From Eledone cirrhosa (Eukaryota): a stretch of 64,000 nt of DNA. A model generated the notes under the pieces. It searched no databases. It was not told the origin of the DNA and was given only the letters and a program-made list of their open reading frames with translations. The position numbers and the translations under genes are program-made. The stretch spans positions 415,276,001 through 415,340,000 of the forward strand of contig OZ024741.1 of NCBI GenBank assembly GCA_964016885.1, given 5' to 3'. Below are positions 1 through 64,000 of this stretch, piece after piece (positions within the stretch are counted from its first letter, which is position 1; each line of letters opens with the position of its first letter).

Positions 1-3000
1 CTCCTCCTCCATGGTAGACCATATTACTCTCAAACTCCTGTCTCACCTCCTCCTCCATGGTAGACCACATTACTCTCAAACTCCTGTCTCACCTCCTCCT
101 CCATGGTAGACCACATTACTCTCAAACTCCTGTCTCACCTCCTCCTCCATGGTAGTCCATATTACTCTCAAACTCCTGTCTCACCTCCTCCTCCATGGTA
201 GACCATATTACTGTCAAACTCCTGTCTCACCTCCTCCTCCATGGTAGTCCACATTACTCTCAAACTCCTGTCTCACCTCCTCCTCCATGGTACACCACAT
301 TACTCTCAAACTCCTGTCTCGGCTCCTCCTCCATGGTAGTCCATATTACTCTCAAACTCCTGTCTCACCTCCTCCTCCATGGTAGTCTACATTACTCTCA
401 AACTCCTGTCTCACCTCCTCCTCCATGGTAGACCATATTACTCTCAAACTCCTGTCTCACCTCCTCCTGTCTCACCTCCTCCTCCATGGTAGACCACATT
501 ACTGTCAAACTCCTGTCTCACCTCCTCCTCCATGGTAGTCCACATTACTCTCAAACTCCTGTCTCACCTCCTCCTCCATGGTACACCATATTACTCTCAA
601 ACTCCTGTCTCACCTCCTCCTCCATGGTAGTCCACATTACTCTCAAACTCCTGTCTCACCTCCTCCTCCATGGTACACCATATTACTCTCAAACTCCTGT
701 CTCACCTCCTCCTCCATGGTACACCATATTACTCTCAAACTCCTGTCTCACCTCCTCCTCCATGGTAGACCACATTACTGTCAAACTCCTGTCTCACCTC
801 CTCCTCCATGGTAGTCCACATTACTCTCAAACTCCTGTCTCACCTCCTCCTCCATGGTACACCATATTACTCTCAAACTCCTGTCTCACCTCCTCCTCCA
901 TGGTACACCATATTACTCTCAAACTCCTGTCTCACCTCCTCTTCCATGGTACACCATATTACTCTCAAACTCCTGTCTCACCTCCTCCTCCATGGTAGTC
1001 CACATTACTGTCAAACTCCTGTCTCACCTCCTCCTCCATGGTAGTCCACATTACTCTCAAACTCCTGTCTCACCTCCTCCTCCATGGTAGACCACATTAC
1101 TCTCAAACTCCTGTCTCACCTCCTCCTCCATGGTACACCACATTACTCTCAAACTCCTGTCTCACCTCCTCCTCCATGGTAGACCACATTACTCTCAAAC
1201 TCCTGTCTCACCTCCTCCTCCATGGTAGTCCATATTACTCTCAAACTCCTGTCTCACCTCCTCCTCCATGGTAGTCCACATTACTCTCAAACTTCTGTCT
1301 CACCTCCTCCTCCATGGTAGTCCACATTACTCTCAAACTCCTGTCTCACCTCCTCCTCCATGGTAGTCCACATTACTCTCAAACTCCTGTCTCACCACCT
1401 CCTCCATGGTAGACCACATTACTCTCAAACTCCTGTCTCACCTCCTCCTCCATGGTAGTCCACATTACTCTCAAACTCCTGTCTCACCTCCTCCTCCATG
1501 GTAGTCCATATTACTCTCAAACTCCTGTCTCACCTCCTCCTCCATGGTAGTCCACATTACTGTCAAACTCCTGTCTCACCTCTTCCTCCATGGTACACCA
1601 CATTACTGTCAAACTCCTGTCTCACCTCCTCCTCCATGGTAGTCCACATTACTCTCAAACTCCTGTCTCACCTCCTCCTCAATGGTACACCACATTACTC
1701 TCAAACTCCTGTCTCACCTCCTCCTCCATGGTAGACCACATTACTGTCAAACTCCTGTCTCACCACCTCCTCCATGGTAGTCCACATTACTCTCAAACTC
1801 CTGTCTCACCTCCTCCTCCATGGTACACCACATTACTCTCAAACTCCTGTCTCACCACCTCCTCCATGGTAGTCCACATTACTCTCAAACTCCTGTCTCA
1901 CCTCCTCCTCCATGGTAGTCCACATTACTCTCAAACTCCTGTCTCACCTCCTCCATGGTAGTCCACATTACTCTCAAACTCCTGTCTCACCACCTCCTCC
2001 ATGGTAGTCCACATTACTCTCAAACTCCTGTCTCACCTCCTCCTCCATGGTAGACCACATTACTCTCAAACTCCTGTCTCACCTCCTCCTCCATGGTACA
2101 CCACATTACTCTCAAACTCCTGTCTCACCTCCTCCTCCATGGTAGACCACATTACTCTCAAACTCCTGTCTCACCTCCTCCTCCATGGTAGTCCATATTA
2201 CTCTCAAACTCCTGTCTCACCTCCTCCTCCATGGTAGTCCATATTACTCTCAAACTCCTGTCTCACCTCCTCCTCCATGGTAGTCCACATTACTCTCAAA
2301 CTCCTGTCTCACCTCCTCCTCCATGGTAGTCCACATTACTCTCAAACTCCTGTCTCACCTCCTCCTCCATGGTAGACCACATTACTCTCAAATTCCTGTC
2401 TCACCTCCTCCTCCATGGTACACCACATTACTCTCAAACTCCTGTCTCACCACCTCCTACATGGTAGACCATATTACTCTCAAACTCCTGTCTCACCTCC
2501 TCCTCCATGGTAGACCATATTACTCTCAAACTCCTGTCTCACCTCCTCCTCCATGGTACACCACATTACTCTCAAACTCCTGTCTCACCTCCTCCTCCAT
2601 GGTAGTCCATATTACTCTCAAACTCCTGTCTCACCTCCTCCTCCATGGTAGTCCACATTACTCTCAAACTCCTGTCTCACCTCCTCCTCCATGGTAGTCC
2701 ACATTACTCTCAAACTCCTGTCTCACCTCCTCCTCCATGGTAGTCCACATTACTCTCAAACTCCTGTCTCACCCCCTCCTCCATGGTACACCACATTACT
2801 GTCAGAAACTCCTGTCTCACCCCCTCCTCCATGGTACACCACATTACTGTCAGAAACTCCTGTCTCACCCCCTCCTCCATGGTACACCACATTACTGTCA
2901 GAAACTCCTGTCTCACCTCCTCCTCCATGGTACACCACATTACTGTCAAACTCCTGTCTCACCTCCTCCTCCATGGTAGTCCACATTACTCTCAAACTCC

Positions 3001-6000
3001 TGTCTCACCTCCTCCTCCATGGTAGACCACATTACTGTCAGAAACTCCTGCCTCACCTCCTCCTCCATGGTACACCACATTACTGTCAAACTCCTGTCTC
3101 ACCTCCTCCTCCATGGTACACCACATTACTCTCAAACTCCTGTCTCACCTCCTCCTCCATGGTAGACCACATTACTGTCAGAAACTCCTGCCTCACCTCC
3201 TCCTCCATGGTACACCACATTACTGTCAAACTCCTGTCTCACCTCCTCCTCCATGGTACACCACATTACTCTCAAACTCCTGTCTCACCACCTCCTCCAT
3301 GGTAGACCACATTACTGTCAAACTCCTGTCTCACCTCCTCCTCCATGGTAGACCACATTACTCTCAAACTCCTGTCTCACCTCCACCTCCATGGTAGACC
3401 ACATTACTGTCAGAAACTCCTGCCTCACCTCCTCCTCCATGGTACACCACATTACTGTCAAACTCCTGTCTCACCTCCTCCTCCATGGTACACCACATTA
3501 CTCTCAAACTCCTGTCTCACCACCTCCTCCATGGTACACCACATTACTGTCAAACTCCTGTCTCACCTCCTCCTCCATGGTAGACCATATTACTGTCAAA
3601 CTCCTGCCTCACCTCCTCCTCCATGGTACACCACATTACTCTCAAACTCCTGTCTCACCACCTCCTCCATGGTACACCACATTACTGTCAAACTCCTGTC
3701 TCACCTCCTCCTCCATGGTAGACCATATTACTGTCAAACTCCTGCCTCACCTCCTCCTCCATGGTACACCACATTACTCTCAAACTCCTGTCTCACCACC
3801 TCCTGCATGGTACACCACATTACTGTCAAACTCCTGTCTCACCTCCTCCTCCATGGTAGACCATATTACTGTCAAACTCCTGTCTCACCTCCTCCTCCAT
3901 GCTACACCACATTACTCTCAAACTCCTGTCTCACCACCTCCTCCATGGTACACCACATTACTGTCAAACTCCTGTCTCACCTCCTCCTCCATGGTAGACC
4001 ATATTACTGTCAAACTCCTGCCTCACCTCCTCCTCCATGGTACACCACATTACTCTCAAACTCCTGTCTCACCACCTCCTCCATGGTACACCACATTACT
4101 GTCAAACTCCTGTCTCACCTCCTCCTGCATGGTACACCACATTACTCTCAAACTCCTGTCTCACCACCTCCTCCATGGTACACCACATTACTCTCAAACT
4201 CCTGTCTCACCACCTCCTCCATGGTACACCACATTACTGTCAAACTCCTGCCTCACCTCCTCCTCCATGGTACACCACATTACTCTCAAACTCCTGTCTC
4301 ACCACCTCCTCCATGGTACACCACATTACTGTCAAACTCCTGTCTCACCTCCTCCTCCATGGTAGACCATATTACTGTCAAACTCCTGCCTCACCTCCTC
4401 CTCCATGGTACACCACATTACTCTCAAACTCCTGTCTCACCTCCTCCTCCATGGTACACCACATTACTCTCAAACTCCTGTCTCACCACCTCCTCCATGG
4501 TACACCACATTACTGTCAAACTCCTGTCTCACCTCCTCCTCCATGGTAGACCATATTACTGTCAAACTCCTGCCTCACCTCCTCCTCCATGGTACACCAC
4601 ATTACTCTCAAACTCCTGTCTCACCACCTCCTCCATGGTACACCACATTACTGTCAAACTCCTGTCTCACCTCCTCCTCCATGGTAGACCATATTACTGT
4701 CAAACTCCTGCCTCACCTCCTCCTCCATGGTACACCACATTACTGTCAGAAACTCCTGTCTCACCCCCTCCTCCATGGTACACCACATTACTGTCAGAAA
4801 CTCCTGTCTCACCCCCTCCTCCATGGTACACCACATTACTGTCAGAAACTCCTGTCTCACCTCCTCCTCCATGGTACACCACATTACTGTCCAACTCCTG
4901 TCTCACCACCTCCTCCATGGTACACCACATTACTGTCAAACTCCTGTCTCACCTCCTCCTCCATGGTAGACCATATTACTGTCAAACTCCTGCCTCACCT
5001 CCTCCTCCATGGTACACCACATTACTCTCAAACTCCTGTCTCACCACCTCCTCCATGGTACACCACATTACTGTCAAACTCCTGTCTCACCACCTCCTCC
5101 ATGGTAGACCATATTACTCTCAAACTCCTATCTCACCACCTCCTCCATGGTAGACCATATTACTCTCAAACTCCTGTCTCACCTCCTCCTCCATGGTAGT
5201 CTACATTACTCTCAAACTCCTGTCTCACCTCCTCCTCCATGGTAGTCCACATTACTGTCAAACTCCTGTCTCACCTCCTCCTCCATGGTACACCATATTA
5301 CTCTCAAACTCCTGTCTCACCTCCTCATCCATGGTACACCACATTACTCTCAAACTCCTGTCTCACCTCCTCCTCCATGGTACACCATATTACTCTCAAA
5401 CTCCTGTCTCACCTCCTCCTCCATGGTACACCATATTACTCTCAAACTCCTGTCTCACCTCCTCCTCCATGGTACACCATATTACTCTCAAACTCCTGTC
5501 TCACCTCCTCCTCCATGGGAGACCACATTACTGTCAAACTCCTGTCTCACCTCCTCCTCCATGGTAGTCCACATTACTCTCAAACTCCTGTCTCACCTCC
5601 TCCATGGTAGTCCACATTACTGTCAAATTCCTGTCTCACCTCCTCCTCCATGGTACACCATATTACTCTCAAACTCCTGTCTCACCTCCTCCTCCATGGT
5701 ACACCATATTACTGTCAAACTCCTGTCTCACCTCCTCCTCCATGGTAGTCCATATTACTCTCAAACTCCTGTCTCACCTCCTCCTCCATGGTAGACCACA
5801 TTACTCTCAAACTCCTGTCTCACCACCTCCTCCATGGTACACCATATTACTCTCAAACTCCTGTCTCACCTCCTCCTCCATGGTAGACCACATTACTCTC
5901 AAACTCCTGTCTCACCTCCTCCTCCATGGTACACCACATTACTCTCAAACTCCTGTCTCACCTCCTCCTCCATGGTAGACCATATTACTCTCAAACTCCT

Positions 6001-9000
6001 GTCTCACCTCCTCCTCCATGGTAGACCACATTACTCTCAAACTCCTGTCTCACCTCCTCCTCCATGGTACACCACATTACTCTCAAACTCCTGTCTCACT
6101 TCCTCCTCCATGGTAGACCATATTACTCTCAAACTCCTGTCTCACCTCCTCCTCCATGGTAGACCACATTACTCACAAACTCCTGTCTCACCTCCTCCTC
6201 CATGGTAGTCCATATTACTCTCAAACTCCTGTCTCACCTCCTCCTCCATGGTAGACCACATTACTCTCAAACTCCTGTCTCACCTCCTCCTCCATGGTAG
6301 TCCATATTACTCTCAAACTCCTGTCTCACCTCCTCCTCCATGGTAGACCACATTACTGTCAAACTCCTGTCTCACCTCCTCCTCCATGGTAGTCCACATT
6401 ACTCTCAAACTCCTGTCTCACCTCCTCCTCCATGGTACACCACATTACTCTCAAACTCCTGTCTCACCTCCTCCTCCATGGTAGTCCATATTACTCTCAA
6501 ACTCCTGTCTCACCTCCTCCTCCATGGTAGTCCACATTACTCTCAAACTCCTGTCTCACCTCCTCCTCCATGGTAGACCATATTACTCTCAAACTCCTGT
6601 CTCACCTCCTCCTGTCTCACCTCCTCCTCCATGGTAGACCACATTACTGTCAAACTCCTGTCTCACCTCCTCCTCCATGGTAGTCCACATTACTCTCAAA
6701 CTCCTGTCTCACCTCCTCCTCCATGGTACACCATATTACTCTCAAACTCCTGTCTCACCTCCTCCTCCATGGTAGTCCACATTACTCTCAAACTCCTGTC
6801 TCACCTCCTCCTCCATGGTACACCATATTACTCTCAAACTCCTGTCTCACCTCCTCCTCCATGGTACACCATATTACTCTCAAACTCCTGTCTCACCTCC
6901 TCCTCCATGGTAGACCACATTACTGTCAAACTCCTGTCTCACCTCCTCCTCCATGGTAGTCCACATTACTCTCAAACTCCTGTCTCACCTCCTCCTCCAT
7001 GGTACACCATATTACTCTCAAACTCCTGTCTCACCTCCTCCTCCATGGTACACCATATTACTCTCAAACTCCTGTCTCACCTCCTCCTCCATGGTACACC
7101 ATATTACTCTCAAACTCCTGTCTCACCTCCTCCTCCATGGTAGTCCACATTACTGTCAAACTCCTGTCTCACCTCCTCCTCCATGGTAGTCCACATTACT
7201 GTCAAACTCCTGTCTCACCTCCTCCTCCATGGTACACCACATTACTCTCAAACTCCTGTCTCACCTCCTCCTCCATGGTACACCACATTACTCTCAAACT
7301 CCTGTCTCACCTCCTCCTCCATGGTACACCACATTACTCTCAAACTCCTGTCTCACCTCCTCCTCCATGGTAGACCATATTACTCTCAAACTCCTGTCTC
7401 ACCTCCTCCTCCATGGTAGACCACATTACTCTCAAACTCCTGTCTCACCTCCTCCTCCATGGTAGACCACATTACTCTCAAACTCCTGTCTCACCTCCTC
7501 CTCCATGGTAGTCCATATTACTCTCAAACTCCTGTCTCACCTCCTCCTCCATGGTAGACCATATTACTGTCAAACTCCTGTCTCACCTCCTCCTCCATGG
7601 TAGTCCACATTACTCTCAAACTCCTGTCTCACCTCCTCCTCCATGGTACACCACATTACTCTCAAACTCCTGTCTCACCTCCTCCTCCATGGTAGTCCAT
7701 ATTACTCTCAAACTCCTGTCTCACCTCCTCCTCCATGGTAGTCTACATTACTCTCAAACTCCTGTCTCACCTCCTCCTCCATGGTAGACCATATTACTCT
7801 CAAACTCCTGTCTCACCTCCTCCTGTCTCACCTCCTCCTCCATGGTAGACCACATTACTGTCAAACTCCTGTCTCACCTCCTCCTCCATGGTAGTCCACA
7901 TTACTCTCAAACTCCTGTCTCACCTCCTCCTCCATGGTACACCATATTACTCTCAAACTCCTGTCTCACCTCCTCCTCCATGGTAGTCCACATTACTCTC
8001 AAACTCCTGTCTCACCTCCTCCTCCATGGTACACCATATTACTCTCAAACTCCTGTCTCACCTCCTCCTCCATGGTACACCATATTACTCTCAAACTCCT
8101 GTCTCACCTCCTCCTCCATGGTAGACCACATTACTGTCAAACTCCTGTCTCACCTCCTCCTCCATGGTAGTCCACATTACTCTCAAACTCCTGTCTCACC
8201 TCCTCCTCCATGGTACACCATATTACTCTCAAACTCCTGTCTCACCTCCTCCTCCATGGTACACCATATTACTCTCAAACTCCTGTCTCACCTCCTCTTC
8301 CATGGTACACCATATTACTCTCAAACTCCTGTCTCACCTCCTCCTCCATGGTAGTCCACATTACTGTCAAACTCCTGTCTCACCTCCTCCTCCATGGTAG
8401 TCCACATTACTCTCAAACTCCTGTCTCACCTCCTCCTCCATGGTAGACCACATTACTCTCAAACTCCTGTCTCACCTCCTCCTCCATGGTACACCACATT
8501 ACTCTCAAACTCCTGTCTCACCTCCTCCTCCATGGTAGACCACATTACTCTCAAACTCCTGTCTCACCTCCTCCTCCATGGTAGTCCATATTACTCTCAA
8601 ACTCCTGTCTCACCTCCTCCTCCATGGTAGTCCACATTACTCTCAAACTTCTGTCTCACCTCCTCCTCCATGGTAGTCCACATTACTCTCAAACTCCTGT
8701 CTCACCTCCTCCTCCATGGTAGTCCACATTACTCTCAAACTCCTGTCTCACCACCTCCTCCATGGTAGACCACATTACTCTCAAACTCCTGTCTCACCTC
8801 CTCCTCCATGGTAGTCCACATTACTCTCAAACTCCTGTCTCACCTCCTCCTCCATGGTAGTCCATATTACTCTCAAACTCCTGTCTCACCTCCTCCTCCA
8901 TGGTAGTCCACATTACTGTCAAACTCCTGTCTCACCTCTTCCTCCATGGTACACCACATTACTGTCAAACTCCTGTCTCACCTCCTCCTCCATGGTAGTC

Positions 9001-10595
9001 CACATTACTCTCAAACTCCTGTCTCACCTCCTCCTCAATGGTACACCACATTACTCTCAAACTCCTGTCTCACCTCCTCCTCCATGGTAGACCACATTAC
9101 TGTCAAACTCCTGTCTCACCACCTCCTCCATGGTAGTCCACATTACTCTCAAACTCCTGTCTCACCTCCTCCTCCATGGTACACCACATTACTCTCAAAC
9201 TCCTGTCTCACCACCTCCTCCATGGTAGTCCACATTACTCTCAAACTCCTGTCTCACCTCCTCCTCCATGGTAGTCCACATTACTCTCAAACTCCTGTCT
9301 CACCTCCTCCATGGTAGTCCACATTACTCTCAAACTCCTGTCTCACCACCTCCTCCATGGTAGTCCACATTACTCTCAAACTCCTGTCTCACCTCCTCCT
9401 CCATGGTAGACCACATTACTCTCAAACTCCTGTCTCACCTCCTCCTCCATGGTACACCACATTACTCTCAAACTCCTGTCTCACCTCCTCCTCCATGGTA
9501 GACCACATTACTCTCAAACTCCTGTCTCACCTCCTCCTCCATGGTAGTCCATATTACTCTCAAACTCCTGTCTCACCTCCTCCTCCATGGTAGTCCATAT
9601 TACTCTCAAACTCCTGTCTCACCTCCTCCTCCATGGTAGTCCACATTACTCTCAAACTCCTGTCTCACCTCCTCCTCCATGGTAGTCCACATTACTCTCA
9701 AACTCCTGTCTCACCTCCTCCTCCATGGTAGACCACATTACTCTCAAATTCCTGTCTCACCTCCTCCTCCATGGTACACCACATTACTCTCAAACTCCTG
9801 TCTCACCACCTCCTACATGGTAGACCATATTACTCTCAAACTCCTGTCTCACCTCCTCCTCCATGGTAGACCATATTACTCTCAAACTCCTGTCTCACCT
9901 CCTCCTCCATGGTACACCACATTACTCTCAAACTCCTGTCTCACCTCCTCCTCCATGGTAGTCCATATTACTCTCAAACTCCTGTCTCACCTCCTCCTCC
10001 ATGGTAGTCCACATTACTCTCAAACTCCTGTCTCACCTCCTCCTCCATGGTAGTCCACATTACTCTCAAACTCCTGTCTCACCTCCTCCTCCATGGTAGT
10101 CCACATTACTCTCAAACTCCTGTCTCACCACCTCCTCCACGGTAGACCACATTACTGTCAAACTCCTGTCTCACCTCCTCCTCCATGGTAGACCACATTA
10201 CTCTCAAACTCCTGTCTCACCTCCTCCTCCATGGTACACCACATTACTCTCAAACTCCTGTCTCACCTCCTCCTCCATGGTAGTCCATATTACTCTCAAA
10301 CTCCTGTCTCACCTCCTCCTCCATGGTAGTCCACATTACTGTCAAACTCCTGTCTCACCTCTTCCTCCATGGTACACCACATTACTGTCAAACTCCTGTC
10401 TCACCTCCTCCTCCATGGTAGTCCACATTACTCTCAAACTCCTGTCTCACCTCCTCCTCCATGGTACACCACATTACTGTCAAACTCCTGTCTCACCTCC
10501 TCGTCCATGGTAGTCCACATTACTCTCAAACTCCTGTCTCACCTCCTCCTCCATGGTACACCACATTACTCTCAAACTCCTGTCTCACCTCCACC
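1..10595. repeat. 46-bp tandem satellite (~230 units; consensus CTCACCTCCTCCTCCATGGTA[GA/GT/CA]CCA[C/T]ATTACT[C/G]TCAAACTCCTGT), runs off the left edge; presumed intronic
   Basis: A 46-nt period is directly visible, with one CCATGG per unit and variation concentrated at 4-5 positions. The array ends abruptly at ~10595, about 110 nt before the acceptor at 10705. Confidence 0.98.
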
Positions 10596-10705
10596 ACACA
10601 TGTTATTGTGTATCTGGAACCACTTATATGTCGGGGTTGTATTAGTAATTCTACTAAATATTTTAGTCATTGAAACTCTATTTACTAAGCTATCTACTGT
10701 TATAG

Positions 10706-10776
10706 AAGCAGCACCATATTCTATGACTAAAGACCAATTAAGACTGCGAGAATCTGTTAGAGACAGCATCACCATG
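10706..10776 (+). CDS. rec8: Internal coding exon A of Rad21/Rec8-family kleisin (REC8-like): (x)AAPYSMTKDQLRLRESVRDSITM
   Basis: Acceptor ctactgttatag| (10705) and donor ATG|gtatgt (10777). It ends in phase 0 and joins exon B to give 'DSITMIEAQP', resembling the kleisin 'IT[M/I/L]xE' motif (RAD21 EEITMRE; REC8 EAITILEAEP, recalled). Tandem acceptors TAG-AAG-CAG make the start uncertain by 3-6 nt. Confidence 0.7.
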
Positions 10777-12281: not shown

Positions 12282-12459
12282 TTAACCCATTAGCATTTAA
12301 ACCAGCCATAACTGGTTTCTCATACTGATGTTAAGGTATTGTTCTCAAAATAAATAATATCAAAATCTCGTAGATTCAATATTATGTGAGATAATTATAA
12401 AGCCTTTATCACAAAAATACAATAGTATATATAGAGTAATGTAAATGCTAAAGTGCTAA
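12282..12459. mobile_element. ~178-bp MITE with piggyBac-like ends (TTAA + CCC.. terminal inverted repeat)
   Basis: The left end TTAACCCATTAGCATTTA (12282-12299) and right end TAAATGCTAAAGTGCTAA (12442-12459) match 15/18 as reverse complements. The interior is AT-rich and non-coding. Confidence 0.6.
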
Positions 12460-12574
12460 GAAATGCCCTAGAAATGATGTATGCCACAATGGAACCCCTA
12501 CAACTCCATCAGGAGTTACAGTACCATACAATACCCAGTTTTAATGATCAACTTATCTTCGTTCTCTATTGTAG

Positions 12575-12699
12575 ATTGAAGCACAACCTGATTTACCATC
12601 ATTTGATGCTGGAGGTCTTCAAATGATCATAAGTGACCAAACCGATCTTAATATTTCTATACCAGTAACAACTACAGATGCCTTAGCTGAACCACCAAA
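12575..12699 (+). CDS. rec8: Internal coding exon B of REC8-like kleisin: IEAQPDLPSFDAGGLQMIISDQTDLNISIPVTTTDALAEPP(K)
   Basis: Strong acceptor cttatcttcgttctctattgtag| (12574). The 125 nt are stop-free in phase 0. The donor is AA|gttagt (12700), and its phase 2 matches exon C (AA+G = Lys). This exon is absent from the ORF track. Confidence 0.75.
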
Positions 12700-12716: not shown

Positions 12717-13810
12717 TCCAGTCTATCCTTGATCCAGTCTTTACCTTCAATCTATCCTTGATCCAGTCTTTACCTTCAGTCTATCCTTGATCCAGTCTTT
12801 ACCTTCAGTCTATCCTTGATCCATTCTTTACCTTCAGTCTATCCTTGATCCAGTCTTTACCTTCAGTCTATCCTTGATCCATTCTTTACCTTCAGTCTAT
12901 CCTTGATCCAGTCTTTACCTTCAGTCTATCCTTGATCCATTCTTTACCTTCAGTCTATCCTTGATCCAGTCTTTACCTTCAGTCTATCCTTGATCCGGTC
13001 TTTACCTTCAGTCTATCCTTGATCCAGTCTTTACCTTCAGTCTATCCTTTATCCAGTCTTTACCTTCAGTCTATCCTTGATCCAGTCTTTACCTTCAGTC
13101 TATCCTTGATTCAGTCTTTACTTTCAGTCTATCCTTTATCCAGTCTTTACCTTCAGTCTATCCTTGATCCAGTCTTTACCTTCAGTCTATCCTTTATCCA
13201 GTCTTTACCTTCAGTCTATCCTTGATCCAGTCTTTACTTTCAGTCTATCCTTGATCCAGTCTTTACCTTCAGTCTATCCTTGATCCAGTCTTTACCTTCA
13301 GTCTATCCTTGATCCAGTCTTTACCTTTATCCAGTCTTTACCTTCAGTCTATCCTTGATCCAGTCTTTACTTTCAGTCTATCCTTGATTCAGTCTTTACC
13401 TTCAGTCTATCCTTGATCCAGTCTTTACCTTCAGTCTATCCTTGATCCAGTCTTTACCTTCAGTATATCATTGATCCATTCTTTACCTTCAGTCTATCCT
13501 TGATCCAGTCTTTACCTTCAGTCTATCCTTGATCCAGTCTTTACTTTCAGTCTATCCTTGATCCAGTCTTTACTTTCAATCTATCCTTGATCAAGTCTTA
13601 ACCTTCAGTCTATCCTTGATCCAGTCTTTACCTTCAGTCTATCCTTGATCCAGTCTTTACTTTCAGTCTACCCTTGATCAAGTCTTTAACTTCAGTCTTT
13701 CCTTGATCAAGTCATTACCTTCAGTCTACCCTTGATCCAGTCTTTACCTTCAGTCTATCCTTGATCCAGTCTTCAGTTTCAGTCTACCCTTGATCAAGTC
13801 TTTAACCTCA
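12717..13810. repeat. 29-bp minisatellite (TCCAGTCTTTACCTTCAGTCTATCCTTGA), ~37 units, intronic
   Basis: The 29-nt period is direct. The unit is itself a diverged dimer (CAGTCTTTACCTT / CAGTCTATCCTT), and units become more divergent toward the 3' end. Confidence 0.97.
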
Positions 13811-14077: not shown

Positions 14078-14416
14078 AATCCAGCCTCTAGCTTCAGTCC
14101 ACTCTTGATCCAGTCTTTAACTTCACTCCATCCTTGATCCAGCCTTTAGCTTCACTCCACTCTTGATCCAGCCTTTAGCTTCACTCCACCCTTTATTCCA
14201 CCTTTAGCTTTACTCCACTCTTGATCCCACCTCTAACTTTACTCCACCCTTGATCCCACTTCTAGCTTCACTCCACCCTCGATCCAGTCTCTAGCTTCAC
14301 TCCATCCTTGATCCCACCTCTAGCTTCATTCCACCCTTGATCCAGTCTCTAGCTTCATTCCATCCTTGATCCTGCCTTTAGCTTCACTCCATCCTTGATT
14401 AAGTCTTTATCTTCAA
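14078..14416. repeat. Diverged second block of the 29-bp minisatellite (TCCAGCCTTTAGCTTCACTCCATCCTTGA), ~11-12 units
   Basis: Same period and CCTTGATCC core as 12717-13810, but with block-specific substitutions and higher unit-to-unit divergence. Confidence 0.9.
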
Positions 14417-14619: not shown

Positions 14620-14779
14620 GAACCAGGTTTTAGAAGAAGTTTTGGATCAAGTGGAACAAGTCACCCCCAAGGGAGAAGTACCTGATGGTCGTACACCAGG
14701 AGCGCCACAAAGAGGGGTCCCAAAACAAGAAGATGCTGATACCACAGTTGTTTCTGAGAAACCACGTACAAGACGTCCA
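14620..14779 (+). CDS. rec8: Internal coding exon C of REC8-like kleisin: NQVLEEVLDQVEQVTPKGEVPDGRTPGAPQRGVPKQEDADTTVVSEKPRTRRP
   Basis: Acceptor ctttgctttactatttcag| (14619) and donor CCA|gtaatg (14780). It lies in the ORF 14603-14842 frame, is charged and Pro-rich like a disordered kleisin linker, and its phases match both neighbours. Confidence 0.8.
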
Positions 14780-14830
14780 GTAATGATGGAGTTTTTTGTT
14801 TTGCTATTTCTGTTTCATGATATGTCTGAA

Positions 14831-51200: not shown

Positions 51201-54200
51201 TTGGTTACCAACCTGGTCAACACTGACCAGCACTATTATGTACAGTTGTCTTAACCCTTTAGTGACCAACCTGGTCAACACTGACCAGGACTATTACCTA
51301 CAGTTGTCTTAACCCTTTAGTTACCAACCTGCTCAACACTGACCAGAACTATTAGCTACAGTTGTCTTAACCCTTTAGTTACCAACCTGGTCAACACTAA
51401 CCAGGACTATTACCTACAGTTGTCTTAACCCTTTAGTTACCAACCTGGTCAACACTTACCAGGACTATTACCTACAGTTGTCTTAACCCTTTAGTTACAA
51501 ACCTGGTCAACAATAACCAGGACTATTACCTACAGTTGTCTTAACCCTTTAGTTACCAACCTGGTCAACACTGACCAGGACTATTACCTACAGTTGTCTT
51601 AACCCTTTAGTTACTAACCTGGTCAACACTGACCAGGACTATTACCTACAGTTGTCTTAACCCTTTAGTTACCAACCTGGTCAACACTTACCAGGACTAT
51701 TACCTACAGTTGTCTTAACCCTTTAGTTACCAACCTGGTCAACACTAACCAGGACTATTACCCACACTTGTCTTAACCCTTTAGTTACCAGTCTGGTCAA
51801 CACTAACCAGGACTATTACCTACAGTTGTCTTAACACTTTAGTTACCAATCTGGTCAACACTGACCAGGACTATTACCTACAGTTCTCTTAACCCTTTAG
51901 TTACCAGCCTGGTCAACACTGACCAGCACTATTATCTACAGTTGTCTTAACCCTTTGGTTACCAACCTGGTCAACACTGACCAGCACTATTATCTACAGT
52001 TGTCGTAACCCTTTAGTTACCAACCTGGTCAACACTGACCAGGACTATTACCTACAGTTGTCTTAACCCTTTAGTTACCAACCTGGTCAACACTGACTAG
52101 AACTATTAGCTACAGTTGTCTTAACCCTTTAGTTACCAACCTGGTCAACACTAACCAGGACTATTACCTACAGTTGTCTTAACCCTTTAGTTACCAACCT
52201 GGTCAACACTTACCAGGACTATTACCTACAGTTGTCTTAACCCTTTAGTTACAAACCTGGTCAAAAATAACCAGGACTATTACCTACAGTTGTCTTAACC
52301 CTTTAGTTACCAACCTGGTCAACACTGACCAGGACTATTACCTACAGTTGTCTTAACCCTTTAGTTACTAACCTGGTCAACACTGACCAGGACTATTACC
52401 TAGAGTTGTCCTAACCCTTTAGTTACCAATCTGGTCAACACTAACCAGGACTATTATCTACAGTTGTCTTAACCCTTTAGTTACCAACCTGGTCAACACT
52501 TACCAGGACTATTACCTACAGTTGTCTTAACCCTTTAGTTACCAACCTGGTCAACACTAACCAGGACTATTACCTACAGTTGTCTTAACCCTTCAGTTAC
52601 CAGTCTGGTCAACACTAACCAGGACTATTACCTACAGTTGTCTTAACCCTTTAGTTACCAACCTGGTCAACACTAACCAGGACTATTACCTACAGTTGTC
52701 TTAACCCTTTAGTTACCAACCTGGTCAACACTGACCAGGACTATTACCTACAGTTGTCTTAACCCTTTAGTTACTAACCTGGTCAACACTGACCAGCACT
52801 ATTATCTACAGTTGTCGTAACACTTTAGTTACCAACCTGGTCAACACTTACCAGGACTATTACCTACAGTTGTCTTAACACTTTAGTTACCAACCTGGTC
52901 AACACTTACCAGGACTATTACCTACAGTTGTCTTATCCCTTTAGTTACCAACCTGGTCAACACTGACCAGGACTATTACCTACAGTTGTCTTAACCCTTT
53001 AGTTACCAACCTGGTCAACACTGACCAGGACTATTACCTACAGTTGTCTTAAACCTTTAGTTTCCAACCTGGTCAACACTGACCAGGAATATTACCTGCA
53101 GTTGTCTTAACCCTTTAGTTACCAACCTGGTCAACACTAACCAGGACTATTACCTAAAGTTGTCTTAACCCTTTAGTTAAGTTACCAACCTGGTCAATAG
53201 TGACCAGAACTATTACCTACAGTTGTCTTAACCCTTTAGTTACCAACCTGGTCAACACTGACCAGGACTATTACCTACAGTTGTCTTGACTCTTTAGTTT
53301 CCAACCTGGTCAACACTGACCAGGACTATTACCTTCAGTTGTCTTAACCCTTTAGTTACCAGTCTGGTCAACCCTGACCAGCACTATTATCTACAGTTGT
53401 CTTAACCCTTTAGTTACCACTCTGGTCAACACTGACCAGCACTATTATCTACAGTTGTCTTGACCCTTTAGTTACCAGTCTGGTCAACACTGACCAGGAC
53501 TATTACCTACAGTTGTCGTAACACTTTAGTTATCAACCTAGTCAACACTAACCAGGACTATTATCTGCAGTTGTCGTAACACTTTAGTTACCAAACTGGT
53601 CAACACTTACCAGGACTATTACCTACAGTTGTCTTAACACTTTAGTTACCAGCCTGGTCAACACTTACCAGGACTATTACCTACAGTTGTCTTAACCCTT
53701 TAGTTACCAACCTAGTCAACACTAACCAGGACTATTAACTACAGTTGTCTTGACCCTTTAGTTACCAACCTGGTCAACATTGACCAGGACTAATACCTAC
53801 AGTTGTCTTAACCCTTTAGTTACCAACCTGGTCAACACTGACCAGGACTATTACCTACAGTTGTCTTAACCCTTTAGTTACCAACCTGGTCAACACTAAC
53901 CAGGAATATTATCTACAGTTGTGTTAACCCTTTAGTTACCAACCTGGTCAACACTAACCAGGACTATTACCTACAGTTGTCTTAAACCTTTAGTTTCCAA
54001 CCTGGTCAACACAGACCAGGACTATTACCTACAGTTGTCTTAACCCTTTAGTTACCAACCCAGTCAACACTAACCAGGACGATTACCTACAGTTCTCTTA
54101 ACCCTTTAGTTACCAACCTGGTCAACACTGACCAGCACTATTATCTACAGTTGTCTTAAGCCTTTAGTTAACAGTCTGGTCAACACTGACCGGCACTATT

Positions 54201-57200
54201 ATCTACAGTTGTCTTAACCCTTTAGTTTCCAGTCTAGTCAACACTGACCAGCACTATTATCTACAGTTGTCGTAACACTTTAGTTACCAATCTGGTCAAC
54301 ACTTACCAGGACTATTACCTACAGTTGATGTAACCCTTTAGTTACCAACCTGGTCAACACTAACCAGGACTATTACCTACAGTTGTCTTAACCCTTTAAA
54401 TTCCAACCTGGTCAACACTGACCAGGACTATTACCTACAGTTGATGTAACCCTTTAGTTACCAACCTGGTCAACACTAACCAGGACTATTACCTACAGTT
54501 GTCTTAACCCTTTAAATTCCAACCTGGTCAACACTGACCAGGACTATTGCCTACAGTTGTCTTAACCCTTTAGTTACCAACCTGGTCAACACTGACCAGG
54601 ACTATTGCCTACATTTGTCTTAACCCTTTAGTTACCAACCTGGTCAACACTGACCAGAACTATTGCCTACAGTTGTCTTAACCCTTTAGTTACCAACCTG
54701 GTCAACACTGACCAGGACTATTACCTACAGTTGTCTTAACCCTTTAGTTACCAACCTGGTCAACACTGACCAGGACTATTACCTACAGTTGTCTTAACCC
54801 TTTAGTTACCAACCTGGTCAACACTTACCAGGACTATTACCTACAGTTGTCTTAACCCTTTAGTTACCAACCTGGTCAACACTAACCAGGACTATTACCT
54901 ACAGGTGTCTTAACCCTTTAGTTACCAACCTGGTCAACACTAACCAGGACTATTACCTACAGTTGTCTTAACCCTTTAGTTACCAACCTGGTCAACACTT
55001 ACCAGGACTATTACCTACAGTTGTCTTAACCCTTTAGTTACAAACCTGGTCAATAATAACCAGGACTATTACCTACAGTTGTCTTAACCCTTTAGTTACC
55101 AACCTGGTCAAGACTGACCAGGACTATTACCTACAGTTGTCTTAACCCTTTAGTTACTAACCTGGTCAACACTGACCAGGACTATTACCTACAGTTGTCC
55201 TAACCCTTTAGTTACCAATCTGGTCAACACTAACCAGGACTATTATCTACAGTTGTCTTAACCCTTTAGTTACCAACCTGGTCAAAACTTACCAGGACTA
55301 TTACCTACAGTTGTCTTAACCCTTTAGTTACCAACCTGGTCAACACTAACCAGGACTATTACCTACAGTTGTCTTAACCCTTTAGTTACCAGTCTGGTCA
55401 ACACTAACCAGGACTATTACCTACAGTTGTCTTAACACTTTAGTTACCAATCTGGTCAACACTGACCAGGACTATTACCTACAGTTCTCTTAACCCTTTA
55501 GTTACCAGCCTGGTCAACACTGACCAGCACTATTATCTACAGTTGTCTTAACCCTTTGGTTACCAACCTGGTCAACACTGACCAGCACTATTATGTACAG
55601 TTGTCGTAACCCTTTAGTTACCAACCTGGTCAACACTGACCAGGACTATTACCTACAGTTGTCTTAACCCTTTAGTTACCAACCTGGTCAACACTGACCA
55701 GAACTATTAGCTACAGTTGTCTTAACCCTTTAGTTACCAACCTGGTCAACACTAACCAGGACTATTACCTACAGTTGTCTTAACCCTTTAGTTACCAACC
55801 TGGTCAACACTTACCAGGACTATTACCTACAGTTGTCTTAACCCTTTAGTTACAAACCTTTTCAACAATAACCAGGACTATTACCTACAGTTGTCTTAAC
55901 CCTTTAGTTACCAACCTGGTCAACACTGACCAGAACTATTACCTACAGTTGTCTTAACCCTTTAGTTACTAACCTGGTCAACACTGACCAGGACTATTAC
56001 CTACAGTTGTCTTAACCCTTTAGTTCCCAACCTGGTCAACACTTACCAGGACTATTACCTACAGTTGTCTTAACCCTTTAGTTACCAACCTGGTCAACAC
56101 TAACCAGGACTATTACCTACAGTTGTCTTAACCCTTTAGTTACCAGTCTGGTCAACACTAACCAGGACTATTACCTACAGTTGTCTTAACACTTTAGTTA
56201 CCAATCTGGTCAACACTGACCAGGACTATTACCTACAGTTCTCTTAACCCTTTAGTTACCAGCCTGGTCAACACTGACCAGCACTATTATCTACAGTTGT
56301 CTTAACCCTTTGGTTACCAACCTGGTCAACACTGACCAGCACTATTATCTACAGTTGTCGTAACCCTTTAGTTACCAACCTGGTCAACACTGACCAGGAC
56401 TATTACCTACAGTTGTCTTAACCCTTTAGTTACCAACCTGGTCAACACTGACCAGAACTATTAGCTACAGTTGTCTTAACCCTTTAGTTACCAACCTGGT
56501 CAACACTAACCAGGACTATTACCTACAGTTGTCTTAACCCTTTAGTTACCAACCTGGTCAACACTTACCAGGACTATTACCTACAGTTGTCTTAACCCTT
56601 TAGTTACAAACCTGGTGAACAATAACCAGGACTATTACCTACAGTTGTCTTAACCCTTTATTTACCAACCTGGTCAACACTGACCAGGACTTACCTACAG
56701 TTGTCTTAACCCTTTAGTTACTAACCTGGTCAACACTGACCAGGACTATTACCTACAGTTGTCTTAACCCTTTAGTTACCAACCTGGTCAACACTTACCA
56801 GGACTATTACCTACAGTTGTCTTAACCCTTTAGTTACCAACCTGGTCAACACTAACCAGGACTATTACCTACAGTTGTCTTAACCCTTTAGTTACCTGTC
56901 TGGTCAACACTAACCAGGACTATTACCTAGAGTTGTCTTAACACTTTAGTTACCAATCTGGTCAACACTGACCAGGACTATTACCTACAGTTCTCTTAAC
57001 CCTTTAGTTACCAGCCTGGTCAACACTGACCAGCACTATTATCTACAGTTGTCTTAACCCTTTGGTTACCAACCTGGTCAACACTGACCAGCACTATTAT
57101 CTACAGTTGTCGTAACCCTTTAGTTACCAACCTGGTCAACACTGACCAGGACTATTACCTACAGTTGTCTTAACCCTTTAGTTACTAACCTGGTCAACAC

Positions 57201-60200
57201 TGACCAGGACTATTACCTACAGTTGTCTTAACCCTTTAGTTACCAACCTGGTCAACACTTACCAGGACTATTACCTACAGTTGTCTTAACCCTTTAGTTA
57301 CCAACCTGGTCAACACTAACCAGGACTATTACCTACACTTGTCTTAACCCTTTAGTTACCAGTCTGGTCAACACTAACCAGGACTATTACCTACAGTTGT
57401 CTTAACACTTTAGTTACCAATCTGGTCAACACTGACCAGGACTATTACCTACAGTTCTCTTAACCCTTTAGTTACCAGCCTGGTCAACACTGACCAGCAC
57501 TATTATCTACAGTTGTCTTAACCCTTTGGTTACCAACCTGGTCAACACTGACCAGCACTATTATCTACAGTTGTCGTAACCCTTTAGTTACCAACCTGGT
57601 CAACACTGACCAGGACTATTACCTACAGTTGTCTTAACCCTTTAGTTACCAACCTGGTCAACACTGACTAGAACTATTAGCTACAGTTGTCTTAACCCTT
57701 TAGTTACCAACCTGGTCAACACTAACCAGGACTATTACCTACAGTTGTCTTAACCCTTTAGTTACCAACCTGGTCAACACTTACCAGGACTATTACCTAC
57801 AGTTGTCTTAACCCTTTAGTTACAAACCTGGTCAACAATAACCAGGACTATTACCTACAGTTGTCTTAACCCTTTAGTTACCAACCTGGTCAACACTGAC
57901 CAGGACTATTACCTACAGTTGTCTTAACCCTTTAGTTACTAACCTGGTCAACACTGACCAGGACTATTACCTAGAGTTGTCCTAACCCTTTAGTTACCAA
58001 TCTGGTCAACACTAACCAGGACTATTATCTACAGTTGTCTTAACCCTTTAGTTACCAACCTGGTCAACACTTACCAGGACTATTACCTACAGTTGTCTTA
58101 ACCCTTTAGTTACCAACCTGGTCAACACTAACCAGGACTATTACCTACAGTTGTCTTAACCCTTTAGTTACCAGTCTGGTCAACACTAACCAGGACTATT
58201 ACCTACAGTTGTCTTAACACTTTAGTTACCAATCTGGTCAACACTGACCAGGACTATTACCTACAGTTCTCTTAACCCTTTAGTTACCAGCCTGGTCAAC
58301 ACTGACCAGCACTATTATCTACAGTTGTCTTAACCCTTTGGTTACCAACCTGGTCAACACTGACCAGCACTATTATGTACAGTTGTCGTAACCCTTTAGT
58401 TACCAACCTGGTCAACACTGACCGGGACTATTACCTACAGTTGTCTTAACCCTTTAGTTACCAACCTGGTCAACACTGACCAGAACTATTAGCTACAGTT
58501 GTCTTAACCCTTTAGTTACCAACCTGGTCAACACTAACCAGGACTATTACCTACAGTTGTCTTAACCCTTTAGTTACCAACCTGGTCAACACTTACCAGG
58601 ACTATTACCTACAGTTGTCTTAACCCTTTAGTTACAAACCTGGTCAACAATAACCAGGACTATTACCTACAGTTGTCTTAACCCTTTAGTTACCAACCTG
58701 GTCAACACTGACCAGGACTATTACCTACAGTTGTCTTAACCCTTTAGTTACTAACCTGGTCAACACTGACCAGGACTATTACCTACAGTTGTCTTAACGC
58801 TTTAGTTACCAACCTGGTCAACACTTACCAGGACTATTACCTACAGTTGTCTTAACCCTTTAGTTACCAACCTGGTCAACACTAACCAGGACTATTACCT
58901 ACAGTTGTCTTAACCCTTTAGTTACCAACCTGGTCAACACTGACCAGGACTATTACCTACAGTTGTCTTAACCCTTTAGTTACTAACCTGGTCAACACTG
59001 ACCAGCACTATTATCTACAGTTGTCGTAACACTTTAGTTACCAACCTGGTCAACACTTACCAGGACTATTACCTACAGTTGTCTTAACACTTTAGTTACC
59101 AACCTGGTCAACACTTACCAGGACTATTACCTACAGTTGTCTTATCCCTTTAGTTACCAACCTGGTCAACACTGACCAGGACTATTACCTACAGTTGTCT
59201 TAACCCTTTAGTTACCAACCTGGTCAACACTGACCAGGACTATTACCTACAGTTGTCTTAAACCTTTAGTTTCCAACCTGGTCAACACTGACCAGGAATA
59301 TTACCTGCAGTTGTCTTAACCCTTTAGTTACCAACCTGGTCAACACTGACCAGGACTATTGCCTAAAGTTGTCTTAACCCTTTAGTTAAGTTACCAACCT
59401 GGTCAATAGTGACCAGAACTATTACCTACAGTTGTCTTAACCCTTTAGTTACCAACCTGGTCAACACTGACCAGGACTATTACCTACAGTTGTCTTGACT
59501 CTTTAGTTTCCAACCTGGTCAACACTGACCAGGACTATTACCTTCAGTTGTCTTAACCCTTTAGTTACCAGTCTGCTCAACCCTGACCAGCACTATTATC
59601 TACAGTTGTCTTAACCCTTTAGTTACCACTCTGGTCAACACTGACCAGCACTATTATCTACAGTTGTCTTGACCCTTTAGTTACCAGTCTGGTCAACACT
59701 GACCAGGACTATTACCTACAGTTGTCGTAACACTTTAGTTATCAACCTAGTCAACACTAACCAGGACTATTATCTACAGTTGTCGTAACACTTTAGTTAC
59801 CAAACTGGTCAACACTTACCAGGACTATTACCTACAGTTGTCTTAACACTTTAGTTACCAGCCTGGTCAACACTTACCAGGACTATTACCTACAGTTGTC
59901 TTAACCCTTTAGTTACCAACCTAGTCAACACTAACCAGGACTATTAACTACAGTTGTCTTGACCCTTTAGTTACCAACCTGGTCAACATTGACCAGGACT
60001 ATTACCTACAGTTGTCTTAACCCTTTAGTTACCAACCTGGTCAACACTGACCAGGACTATTACCTACAGTTGTCTTAACCCTTTAGTTACCAACCTGGTC
60101 AACACTAACCAGGAATATTATCTACAGTTGTGTTAACCCTTTAGTTACCAACCTGGTCAACACTAACCAGGACTATTACCTACAGTTGTCTTAAACCTTT

Positions 60201-63200
60201 AGTTTCCAACCTGGTCAACACAGACCAGGACTATTACCTACAGTTGTCTTAACCCTTTAGTTACCAACCCAGTCAACACTAACCAGGACGATTACCTACA
60301 GTTCTCTTAACCCTTTAGTTACCAACCTGGTCAACACTTACCAGCACTATTATCTACAGTTGTCTTAAGCCTTTAGTTAACAGTCTGGTCAACACTGACC
60401 AGCACTATTATCTACAGTTGTCTTAACCCTTTAGTTACCAGTCTAGTCAACACTGACCAGCACTATTATCTACAGTTGTCGTAACACTTTAGTTACCAAC
60501 CTGGTCAACACTTACCAGGACTATTACCTACAGTTGATGTAACCCTTTAGTTACCAACCTGGTCAACACTAACCAGGACTATTACCTACAGTTGTCTTAA
60601 CCCTTTAAATTCCAACCTGGTCAACACTGACCAGGACTATTGCCTACAGTTGTCTTAACCCTTTAGTTACCAACATGGTCAACACTGACCAGGACTATTG
60701 CCTACATTTGTCTTAACCCTTTAGTTACCAACCTGGTCAACACTGATCAGAACTATTGCCTACAGTTGTCTTAACCCTTTAGTTACCAACCTGGTCAACA
60801 CTGACCAGGACTATTACCTACAGTTGTCTTAACCCTTTAGTTACCAACCTGGTCAACACTGACCAGGACTATTACCTACAGTTCTCTTAACCCTTTAGTT
60901 ACCAGTCTGGTCAACACTGACCAGCACTATTATCTACAGTTGTCTTAACCCTTTAGTTACCAACCTGGTCAACATTTACCAGGACTATTACCTACAGTTG
61001 TCTTAACCCTTTAGTTACCAACCTGGTCAACACTGACCAGGACTATTACCTACAGTTGTCTTAACCCTTTAGTTACCAACCTGGTCAACACTTACCAGGA
61101 CTATTACCTACAGTTGTCTTAACCCTTTAGTTACCAACCTGGTCAACACTAACCAGGACTATTACCTACAGGTGTCTTAACCCTTTAGTTACCAACCTGG
61201 TCAACACTAACCAGGACTACTACCTACAGTTGTCTTAACCCTTTAGTTACCAACCTGGTCAACACTTACCAGGACTATTACCTACAGTTGTCTTAACCCT
61301 TTAGTTACAAACCTGGTCAATAATAACCAGGACTATTACCTACAGTTGTCTTAACCCTTTAGTTACCAACCTGGTCAAGACTGACCAGGACTATTACCTA
61401 CAGTTGTCTTAACCCTTTAGTTACTAACCTGGTCAACACTGACCAGGACTATTACCTACAGTTGTCCTAACCCTTTAGTTACCAATCTGGTCAACACTAA
61501 CCAGGACTATTATCTACAGTTGTCTTAACCCTTTAGTTACCAACCTGGTCAAAACTTACCAGGACTATTACCTACAGTTGTCTTAACCCTTTAGTTACCA
61601 ACCTGGTCAACACTAACCAGGACTATTACCTACAGTTGTCTTAACCCTTTAGTTACCAGTCTGGTCAACACTAACCAGGACTATTACCTACAGTTGTCTT
61701 AACACTTTAGTTACCAATCTGGTCAACACTGACCAGGACTATTACCTACAGTTCTCTTAACCCTTTAGTTACCAGCCTGGTCAACACTGACCAGCACTAT
61801 TATCTACAGTTGTCTTAACCCTTTGGTTACCAACCTGGTCAACACTGACCAGCACTATTATGTACAGTTGTCGTAACCCTTTAGTTACCAACCTGGTCAA
61901 CACTGACCAGGACTATTACCTACAGTTGTCTTAACCCTTTAGTTACCAACCTGGTCAACACTGACCAGAACTATTAGCTACAGTTGTCTTAACCCTTTAG
62001 TTACCAACCTGGTCAACACTAACCAGGACTATTACCTACAGTTGTCTTAACCCTTTAGTTACCAACCTGGTCAACACTTACCAGGACTATTACCTACAGT
62101 TGTCTTAACCCTTTAGTTACAAACCTTTTCAACAATAACCAGGACTATTACCTACAGTTGTCTTAACCCTTTAGTTACCAACCTGGTCAACACTGACCAG
62201 AACTATTACCTACAGTTGTCTTAACCCTTTAGTTACTAACCTGGTCAACACTGACCAGGACTATTACCTACAGTTGTCTTAACCCTTTAGTTCCCAACCT
62301 GGTCAACACTTACCAGGACTATTACCTACAGTTGTCTTAACCCTTTAGTTACCAACCTGGTCAACACTAACCAGGACTATTACCTACAGTTGTCTTAACC
62401 CTTTAGTTACCAGTCTGGTCAACACTAACCAGGACTATTACCTACAGTTGTCTTAACACTTTAGTTACCAATCTGGTCAACACTGACCAGGACTATTACC
62501 TACAGTTCTCTTAACCCTTTAGTTACCAGCCTGGTCAACACTGACCAGCACTATTATCTACAGTTGTCTTAACCCTTTGGTTACCAACCTGGTCAACACT
62601 GACCAGCACTATTATCTACAGTTGTCGTAACCCTTTAGTTACCAACCTGGTCAACACTGACCAGGACTATTACCTACAGTTGTCTTAACCCTTTAGTTAC
62701 CAACCTGGTCAACACTGACCAGAACTATTAGCTACAGTTGTCTTAACCCTTTAGTTACCAACCTAGTCAACACTAACCAGGACTATTACCTACAGTTGTC
62801 TTAACCCTTTAGTTACCAACCTGGTCAACACTTACCAGGACTATTACCTACAGTTGTCTTAACCCTTTAGTTACAAACCTGGTCAACAATAACCAGGACT
62901 ATTACCTACAGTTGTCTTAACCCTTTAGTTACCAACCTGGTCAACACTGACCAGGACTTACCTACAGTTGTCTTAACCCTTTAGTTACTAACCTGGTCAA
63001 CACTGACCAGGACTATTACCTACAGTTGTCTTAACCCTTTAGTTACAAACCTGGTCAACACTTACCAGGACTATTACCTACAGTTGTCTTAACCCTTTAG
63101 TTACCAACCTGGTCAACACTAACCAGGACTATTACCTACAGTTGTCTTAACCCTTTAGTTACCTGTCTGGTCAACACTAACCAGGACTATTACCTAGAGT

Positions 63201-64000
63201 TGTCTTAACACTTTAGTTACCAATCTGGTCAACACTGACCAGGACTATTACCTACAGTTCTCTTAACCCTTTAGTTACCAGCCTGGTCAACACTGACCAG
63301 CACTATTATCTACAGTTGTCTTAACCCTTTGGTTACCAACCTGGTCAACACTGACCAGCACTATTATCTACAGTTGTCGTAACCCTTTAGTTACCAACCT
63401 GGTCAACACTGACCAGGACTATTACCTACAGTTGTCTTAACCCTTTAGTTACCAACCTGGTCAACACTAACCAGGACTATTACCTACAGTTGTCTTAACC
63501 CTTTAGTTACCAACCTGGTCAACACTTACCAGGACTATTACCTACTGTTGTCTTAACCCTTTAGTTACAAACCTGGTCAACAATAACCAGGACTATTACC
63601 TACAGTTGTCTTAACCCTTTAGTTACCAACCTGGTCAACACTGACCAGGACTATTACCTACAGTTGTCTTAACCCTTTAGTTACTAACCTGGTCAACACT
63701 GACCAGGACTATTACCTACAGTTGTCCTAACCCTTTAGTTACCAATCTGGTCAACACTAGCCAGGACTATTATCTACAGTTGTCTTAACCCTTTAGTTAC
63801 CAACCTGGTCAACACTTACCAGGACTATTACCTACAGTTGTCTTAACCCTTTAGTTACCAACCTGGTCAACACTTACCAGGACTATTACCTACAGTTGTC
63901 TTAACCCTTTAGTTACAAACCTGGTCAACACTGACCAGGACTATTACCTACAGGTGTCTTAACCCTTTAGTTACTAACCTGGTCAACACTGACCAGGACT
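15226..64000. repeat. 58-bp tandem satellite (~840 units; TTAACCCTTTAGTTACCAACCTGGTCAACACT[G/A/T]ACCAGGACTATTACCTACAGTTGTC) with higher-order structure, runs off the right edge; inside the intron following exon D
   Basis: Uninterrupted 58-nt period from 15226 to the window end. I saw no unique inserts or inversions, and no ORFs are reported in this region. Confidence 0.98.

Follow-up and report, generated by a model that had tools for sequence, protein, structure and literature searches.

Genes whose introns are swollen by repeated DNA have been described in several settings, which bear on a 64,000-bp stretch of the genome of the octopod Eledone cirrhosa (assembly GCA_964016885.1, contig OZ024741.1, here C2; the stretch, C2:415,276,001-415,340,000, is referred to as the window). 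The window carries four exons of a predicted REC8 gene set between arrays of minisatellite. The Y-linked fertility genes kl-3 and kl-5 of Drosophila have megabase introns of simple satellites with a 5-bp unit, which make up >99% of the locus, and are expressed only in spermatogenesis, and both their transcription and the RNA-binding proteins involved have been demonstrated (Fingerhut 2019, PMC6508621). On avian dot chromosomes, a process termed sequence stuttering has produced kilobase-scale expansions (1.6-2.9 kb in the case shown) associated with high GC content (PMC12954441). The molluscan miniature inverted-repeat transposable element (MITE) DTC84 contains up to five tandem repeats and is flanked by an AA target duplication (PMC3879986). 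Human subtelomeric genes rich in variable number tandem repeats (VNTRs), such as PTPRN2 and DLGAP2, hold many small, GC-rich VNTRs (PMC7608644), and the introns of the mouse pseudoautosomal region are short (bioRxiv 10.1101/2022.03.26.485930).

With kl-3 and kl-5 the E. cirrhosa locus shares a small coding sequence dispersed through the satellite-filled giant introns of a germline gene, and its introns are likewise almost wholly satellite, with tandem repeats making up 96% of the 718-kb gene and individual introns reaching 101, 309 and 261 kb. It differs from them in that its units are 20-118 bp long (44-118 bp in the giant introns) and apparently transposon-seeded, and it is known here from DNA alone; furthermore, the anatomy is not confined to spermatogenesis genes, as the neighbouring, neuronal UNC79 has it too. 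The features shared with avian stuttering are expansion between conserved exons, an own repeat in each intron, a tie to region rather than function and an extension into intergenic DNA, whereas the arrays described here attain 100-300 kb, have a GC content of 41-49% in the window and appear to be seeded by MITEs and short interspersed elements (SINEs). A regional expansion, affecting neighbours as well as intergenic DNA, is seen in UNC79 and in intergenic 21-mer and 58-mer arrays, with one small neighbouring gene remaining compact. As in DTC84, tandem units lie in a non-autonomous element with short inverted ends, with a palindrome in the unit (the hairpin of the 58-mer), but 4,477-7,002 units occupy a single element, and the flanks are TTAA and the ends CCC. 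With the human subtelomeric and mouse pseudoautosomal cases the locus shares an enrichment of minisatellites at chromosome ends, where they fill introns, those of brain-expressed genes included; unlike in the human VNTR genes, single arrays constitute nearly all of introns of 100-300 kb. By analogy, the locus resembles kl-3 and kl-5 but departs from two of their defining features that were tested, and would appear to work more like avian stuttering combined with subtelomeric VNTR loading, fed by repeat-bearing MITEs as in clams. A literature search on octopus REC8 and cephalopod satellite introns, with coverage lying mostly outside subscription journals, returned no report.

Identity and integrity of the REC8 gene

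A preliminary description, made from the letters of the window, had recognized 506 coding nt in 64 kb and tentatively attributed them to a meiotic cohesin, and both points stand. The exons are A (71 nt; positions 10706..10776 of the window), B (125 nt; 12575..12699), C (160 nt; 14620..14779) and D (150 nt; 15049..15198), all on the + strand, which together make up 506 nt in one frame with GT-AG ends and correspond to REC8 coding exons 7-10. Exons A, B and C are supported both by a retrocopy, described below, and by alignment to Octopus vulgaris REC8, while exon D shares 33 of 50 residues with the latter protein. No stop precedes the donor of exon D, as had been stated, and the exon includes a basic KRRR motif, which we take to be typical of the STAG-binding region of kleisins. 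The continuation of the gene was found on the same scaffold, with exon 11 at window-relative position 275,708, beyond the 58-mer array. In total, the gene spans 718,402 bp and comprises 17 coding exons and 603 codons with no internal stop. All 16 introns have GT-AG ends, the splice sites having been placed by hand, guided by the reading frame and the retrocopy, and the 840 kb of sequence covering the locus contain no N gaps.

The encoded protein shares 56% identity with O. sinensis REC8 (XP_036365276.1) over residues 1-183, which covers exons 1-6, and 55% with O. vulgaris REC8 (CAI9733164.1) over residues 110-603, which covers exons 5-17 except 12. Exons D and 11 are adjacent in the O. vulgaris protein, and the exon order is the same. 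Against this identity of 55-56% over most of the length, pairwise identity to RAD21 of E. cirrhosa, encoded on C15, amounts to 33-40% in two stretches of ~45 residues only. Exon 3 matches the Rad21_Rec8_N domain (25.4 bits against a cut-off of 23.1; orthologue e-value: 4e-22), and the last exon alone matches the C-terminal Rad21_Rec8 winged-helix domain below threshold (e-value: 7e-4; 19.3 bits against a cut-off of 22.7), which the O. vulgaris orthologue passes. On these sequence grounds the window gene is classed as a meiotic-type kleisin and REC8 orthologue, for which meiotic expression is predicted. No match came from homologue searches using single exons, or from searching the PDB with exons 3 and D. 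A HMMER representative search produced two matches, O. sinensis REC8 and one low-complexity protein, the latter of which was dropped.

Both REC8 models in the databases are partial. The O. sinensis model ends at the end of exon 6, where the intron with the 46-mer array is located in E. cirrhosa, and the O. vulgaris model is without exons 1-4. Large introns are a possible cause, and short-read octopus annotations may split such genes.

A DNA search revealed a processed, 5′-truncated and intronless REC8 retrocopy at C2:402,601,765-402,603,295 on the minus strand, which is 79.6% identical to the parent over 1,285 aligned bases. It joins all 11 covered exon junctions with no extra bases, that of exon D to exon 11 included, and its 3′ part served to locate the downstream exons 260 kb past exon D. 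The retrocopy has accumulated nine stops in 415 codons, and 13 of its 17 indels shift the frame; the parent has none of these. Its existence would imply a germline mRNA of REC8 in the past. Since exon order, frame and junctions match the retrocopy and the two Octopus proteins, the gene is not a truncated pseudogene, and its exon order is not the product of a misjoin; both doubts had been raised in the preliminary description. The chance that REC8 is instead a recent pseudogene, crippled by its arrays such that a full transcript is no longer made, appears very slight. The reading frame and all splice sites are intact, parent-versus-retrocopy dN/dS is 0.58, and PF04825 matches in the genome are limited to a compact RAD21 on C15 and the REC8 exon 317 kb upstream of the window, so that no replacement REC8 is evident. 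Consistent with such a recent loss are the age of the retrocopy (dS 0.34), which may predate the expansions, and the absence of RNA runs among the sequencing runs matching the REC8 locus.

Tandem arrays in the REC8 introns and their origin

Each array named in the preliminary description was recovered with Tandem Repeats Finder, though the assembled sizes are far larger (15.3 kb for the 46-mer and 259.8 kb for the 58-mer). The 46-mer array at the start of the window (1..10592, + strand; 229 copies, 93%) is the 3′ part of an array of 331 copies in intron 6 (15,646 bp). Intron 8 harbors two 29-mer arrays (12719..13804 and 14079..14399, + strand), whose units are related (score 53 versus a shuffle maximum of 21), and the 269-bp intron 9 harbors a degenerate 20-mer repeat of six copies (14822..14943, + strand; 76%). 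The 58-mer array (15226..64000, + strand; 841 copies, 93% in the window) constitutes the first 48.8 kb of a 259,751-bp array of ~4,477 copies (92%) which fills intron 10 (260,509 bp). Elsewhere in the gene, a 308-kb array of 7,002 copies of a 44-mer occupies intron 3 (308,562 bp), a 101,100-bp intron contains a 118-mer plus a 45-mer, and arrays longer than 100 bp occur in 8/16 introns. The 46-, 29-, 20- and 58-mer units show no clear mutual similarity (shuffle p 0.05-0.95), in agreement with the claim that the four families are unrelated. The 58-mer unit includes an 8-bp hairpin (z -2.4; 4/200 shuffles as good), while no folding was found for the 46-mer and 29-mer units.

In the four big arrays, 72-91% of the sequence falls within exact duplications of at least 1 kb; one of these, in the 58-mer array, measures 20.2 kb, and several others, in the 58- and 44-mer arrays, measure 6-9 kb. 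Such duplications might be taken to indicate that array lengths are partly an artefact of over- or under-collapsed assembly, with the exon order right. Three sequencing runs match the locus, and their contigs are identical over exons C-D and do not span the array; because the runs come from one 2023 sample, possibly the assembly source, they do not provide independent support. There are, however, no N gaps, and the 58-mer array contains 331 distinct anchored unit variants among 3,001. Furthermore, the flanking exons are ordered and in frame across three giant introns, with the junctions corroborated as above, and a length artefact is therefore considered improbable.

The preliminary description had also proposed a germline-specific device comparable to that of kl-3 and kl-5. 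In a Y-loop-like programme of this kind, RNA-binding factors would recognise the transcribed arrays and array-length alleles would affect fertility. The gross anatomy is the same, with exons scattered in satellite; the meiotic gene DMC1 also has a satellite-filled intron, and AATAAA is absent from the sense strand of all ten intronic arrays examined. Selection as the cause of the missing sense-strand poly(A) and donor motifs was nevertheless rejected, as their absence is mostly set by the sequence of the unit, and a second, extragenic 58-mer array shows the same AATAAA strand asymmetry. The units are 20-118 bp long and not simple 5-mers, the housekeeping gene MSH2 (C4:98.55 Mb) has an intronic 50-mer array of at least 4.8 kb, and samples of SPO11 introns have a median repeat content of 2%. 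UNC79 shares the anatomy, nearby intergenic DNA is equally satellite-filled and the repeats are not private, nor is their origin novel. The proposal was thus not upheld, and we assign such a programme a low probability.

The claim that each affected intron has a private repeat did not survive comparison with the rest of the genome. The second 58-mer array, ~117 kb in size, is located 0.9 Mb away at C2:416,154,582-416,271,289 (ends read, interior sampled), and arrays 85-89% like the 46-mer are found on C7, C20, C24 and C1574 (39 of 95 candidates scored). Past the end of the gene, a 20-kb array is again made of the 45-mer of REC8 intron 1, a unit which resembles a common interspersed repeat of the genome, presumably a SINE. 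A 29-mer in one UNC79 intron matches, by eye, the first half of the 58-mer. The second 58-mer array was tried as an intron of a nearby glyoxalase-domain gene and rejected, as it begins 4 kb past the last exon.

Two of the largest arrays can be traced to small dispersed elements. The 44-mer array is located inside a short element with inverted ends and TTAA flanks, and the 58-mer array at the left end of another such element; from these flanks and the CCC ends we take the elements to be of piggyBac type. The 58-mer unit combines the left end of a MITE-like element, dispersed and ~235 bp long, with the 8-bp hairpin, and the element closing the 58-mer array has at least 39 further near-full copies (84-91%) on many chromosomes (40 scored of 2,400 candidates). 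An array within or adjoining a dispersed element with inverted ends and a target duplication was thus found for both units. An unexpanded short copy of the MITE-like element of the 44-mer, identified by eye, is furthermore present in the intron between exons A and B (12282..12460, ends approximate; + strand). The 58- and 44-mers accordingly look to have grown out of dispersed MITE-like elements, such that the seeds of these arrays would be traceable.

A satellite field at the scaffold end

The scaffold is 416 Mb long, in a genome of 3.0 Gb, and ends ~1 Mb beyond the window. Tandem repeats make up 92% of the contiguous 1.02 Mb around REC8, and at least 90% of the sequence in 16/20 samples taken toward the scaffold end and in 7/10 taken as far as 1.6 Mb upstream; over the terminal ~3 Mb of the scaffold, satellite accounts for ~80-90%. 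A 21-mer array of ~500 kb, from C2:415,620,124 to ~416,129,650 (180 kb contiguous, the rest sampled), lies outside any gene found and is interrupted by an RTE-like long interspersed element (LINE) with an 861-codon open frame. Save for one UNC79 exon, the open reading frames of the flanking unique DNA belong to fragments of LINEs and other transposons. Several kb of (AT)n close the scaffold, and no telomere repeat was observed there; the term subtelomeric is therefore unproven, and the region could be subtelomeric or pericentromeric.

UNC79, which we take to be a subunit of the neuronal NALCN channel complex, is located head-to-head with REC8, ~26 kb upstream of the REC8 start codon and on the opposite strand (PDB e-values: 4e-14 and 1e-9). 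Ten Pfam-matched exons, encoding the first ~fifth of the protein, are spread over 500 kb (C2:414,327,024-414,830,842), separated by gaps that include ones of 331, 109, 34 and 18 kb, the largest of which may hide an unmatched exon. All five 10-kb samples from the two largest gaps consist entirely of tandem repeat (55-, 39- and 43-mers), further arrays with units of 20-62 bp occur at 8/10 exon-centred loci, and most UNC79 introns have a different minisatellite. Two conserved genes, one meiotic and one neuronal, thus persist with 100-300-kb introns of nearly pure minisatellite, at ~100 times the scale seen on bird dot chromosomes. Their head-to-head arrangement provides a natural control, with the same DNA neighbourhood and different tissues, for telling a germline timing device from tolerated regional growth. 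As UNC79 is built alike, the gigantism of REC8 probably reflects its position at a chromosome end choked with repeats, and not a timer specific to meiosis.

The neutral, position-based expansion which the preliminary description had offered as an alternative therefore fits best among the readings considered. We think it probable that local, near-neutral tandem amplification of small transposon pieces inflated the REC8 introns within a ~3-Mb satellite field, that long genes are affected whatever their function, and that narrowly expressed genes tolerate the cost. From the exon chain, the arrays, the MITE-like elements at the 44- and 58-mer arrays, the UNC79 architecture and the multi-kb exact duplications, as observed, we infer an expansion in which a MITE or SINE fragment would land in an intron, 20-120 bp of it would be duplicated, and unequal exchange or rolling amplification would expand the array to hundreds of kb. 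As each intron would have its own seed, each would come to have its own repeat. Purifying selection would meanwhile keep the exons and splice sites. Transcription of 718 kb would take 4-12 h at an assumed 1-3 kb/min, and genes restricted to germline or neurons may tolerate hours of extra transcription where highly expressed housekeeping genes may not.

Several observations weigh against this regional, near-neutral amplification. A 3-exon glyoxalase-domain gene, presumably GLOD5-like, is compact within the field (C2:416.142-416.150 Mb; 8.5 kb, with one 1.4-kb array), and the reading draws on two giant-array genes within that field. The observation that the preliminary description had named as refuting its own proposal, satellite-filled introns in neighbouring genes regardless of function, was largely made, in UNC79, with the compact glyoxalase gene as the exception. 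RAD21, a housekeeping gene near a chromosome end (1.5 Mb of C15), is likewise compact at 10.6 kb. The remaining contrary points concern meiotic genes in general: DMC1 spans at least 47 kb and has a 52-mer intron, versus 4 kb and none for RAD51, MSH4 spans at least 65 kb versus 17-31 kb for MSH2/3/6, and SPO11 spans at least 757 kb in the interior of a 443-Mb chromosome (C1:58,122,821-58,879,797). Altogether, four of five meiotic genes, a small sample, are larger than their non-meiotic paralogues or controls.

Meiotic genes and controls

The five genes of this tally are REC8, DMC1, SPO11, MSH4 and a HORMAD-like gene; MND1, TEX11/SPO22 and MSH5, with one or two exons each, were left out. Apart from REC8 and UNC79, genes were named from Pfam hits together with diagnostic motifs, and no division into meiotic and mitotic members was made for the Sec63 and MCM hits. 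Satellite filling was observed in 2/5 genes, REC8 and DMC1, both in satellite-rich regions. In DMC1 (C12:7,654,566-7,701,365) a 52-bp array extends over most of a ~41-kb gap, accompanied by 87-, 204-, 36- and 24-mers, and four flanking samples average 42% repeat. Three of the four SPO11 exon matches are weak (e-value: 0.005-0.98) but in order. None of 12 samples from its giant introns reaches 90% repeat, and these introns contain LINE-like open reading frames and are rich in LINEs and microsatellites. The MSH4 gap is similarly not satellite in any of four samples (average 4% tandem repeat), and the domain of the HORMAD-like gene lies within 8.4 kb containing 0% repeat. Among these five genes, the signal that survives is one of size.

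This size difference is what an intron delay would predict, with meiotic genes selected to be long, 718 kb postponing REC8 to the right prophase stage and satellites serving as local filler. REC8 contrasts in this respect with RAD21 (718 versus 10.6 kb), and DMC1, MSH4 and SPO11 are also outsized. Among the controls, the sizes are 4-31 kb for nine chaperonin genes with several exons (two hits of a single block were set aside), 17 kb for MSH3, 21 kb for MSH6 and 31 kb for MSH2. The HORMAD-like gene is, however, small and repeat-free, and somatic genes are long too: SNF transporter genes span up to 257 kb among the 82 scored of 427 candidates, SMC genes 46-97 kb and UNC79 at least 500 kb. Moreover, the same pattern would be expected from relaxed selection on genes of narrow expression, and delay by selected intron length seems to us unlikely. 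A similarly low probability attaches to the wider proposition of a systematic gigantism of octopod meiotic genes, independent of the filler (satellite in REC8, transposon-rich sequence in SPO11, and sizes 10-fold and 2- to 4-fold those of the paralogues in DMC1 and MSH4), with transcription time acting as a prophase clock. If true, the fast-changing 100-300-kb arrays of REC8 would provide timing alleles that are heritable, on a chromosome which is not known to be limited to one sex.

Some further repeats were observed at these loci. RAD21 on C15 also has an intronic 46-mer minisatellite of 1.4 kb, and the glyoxalase-domain gene is located between the 21-mer and the second 58-mer arrays. A 52-mer array of at least 10 kb at C1:57.90 Mb lies in a chromosome interior, and large arrays are therefore not confined to chromosome ends. 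Within the window, intron 7 of REC8 additionally contains interspersed repeats at 10980-11120 and 11460-11580, which we take to be SINE-like.

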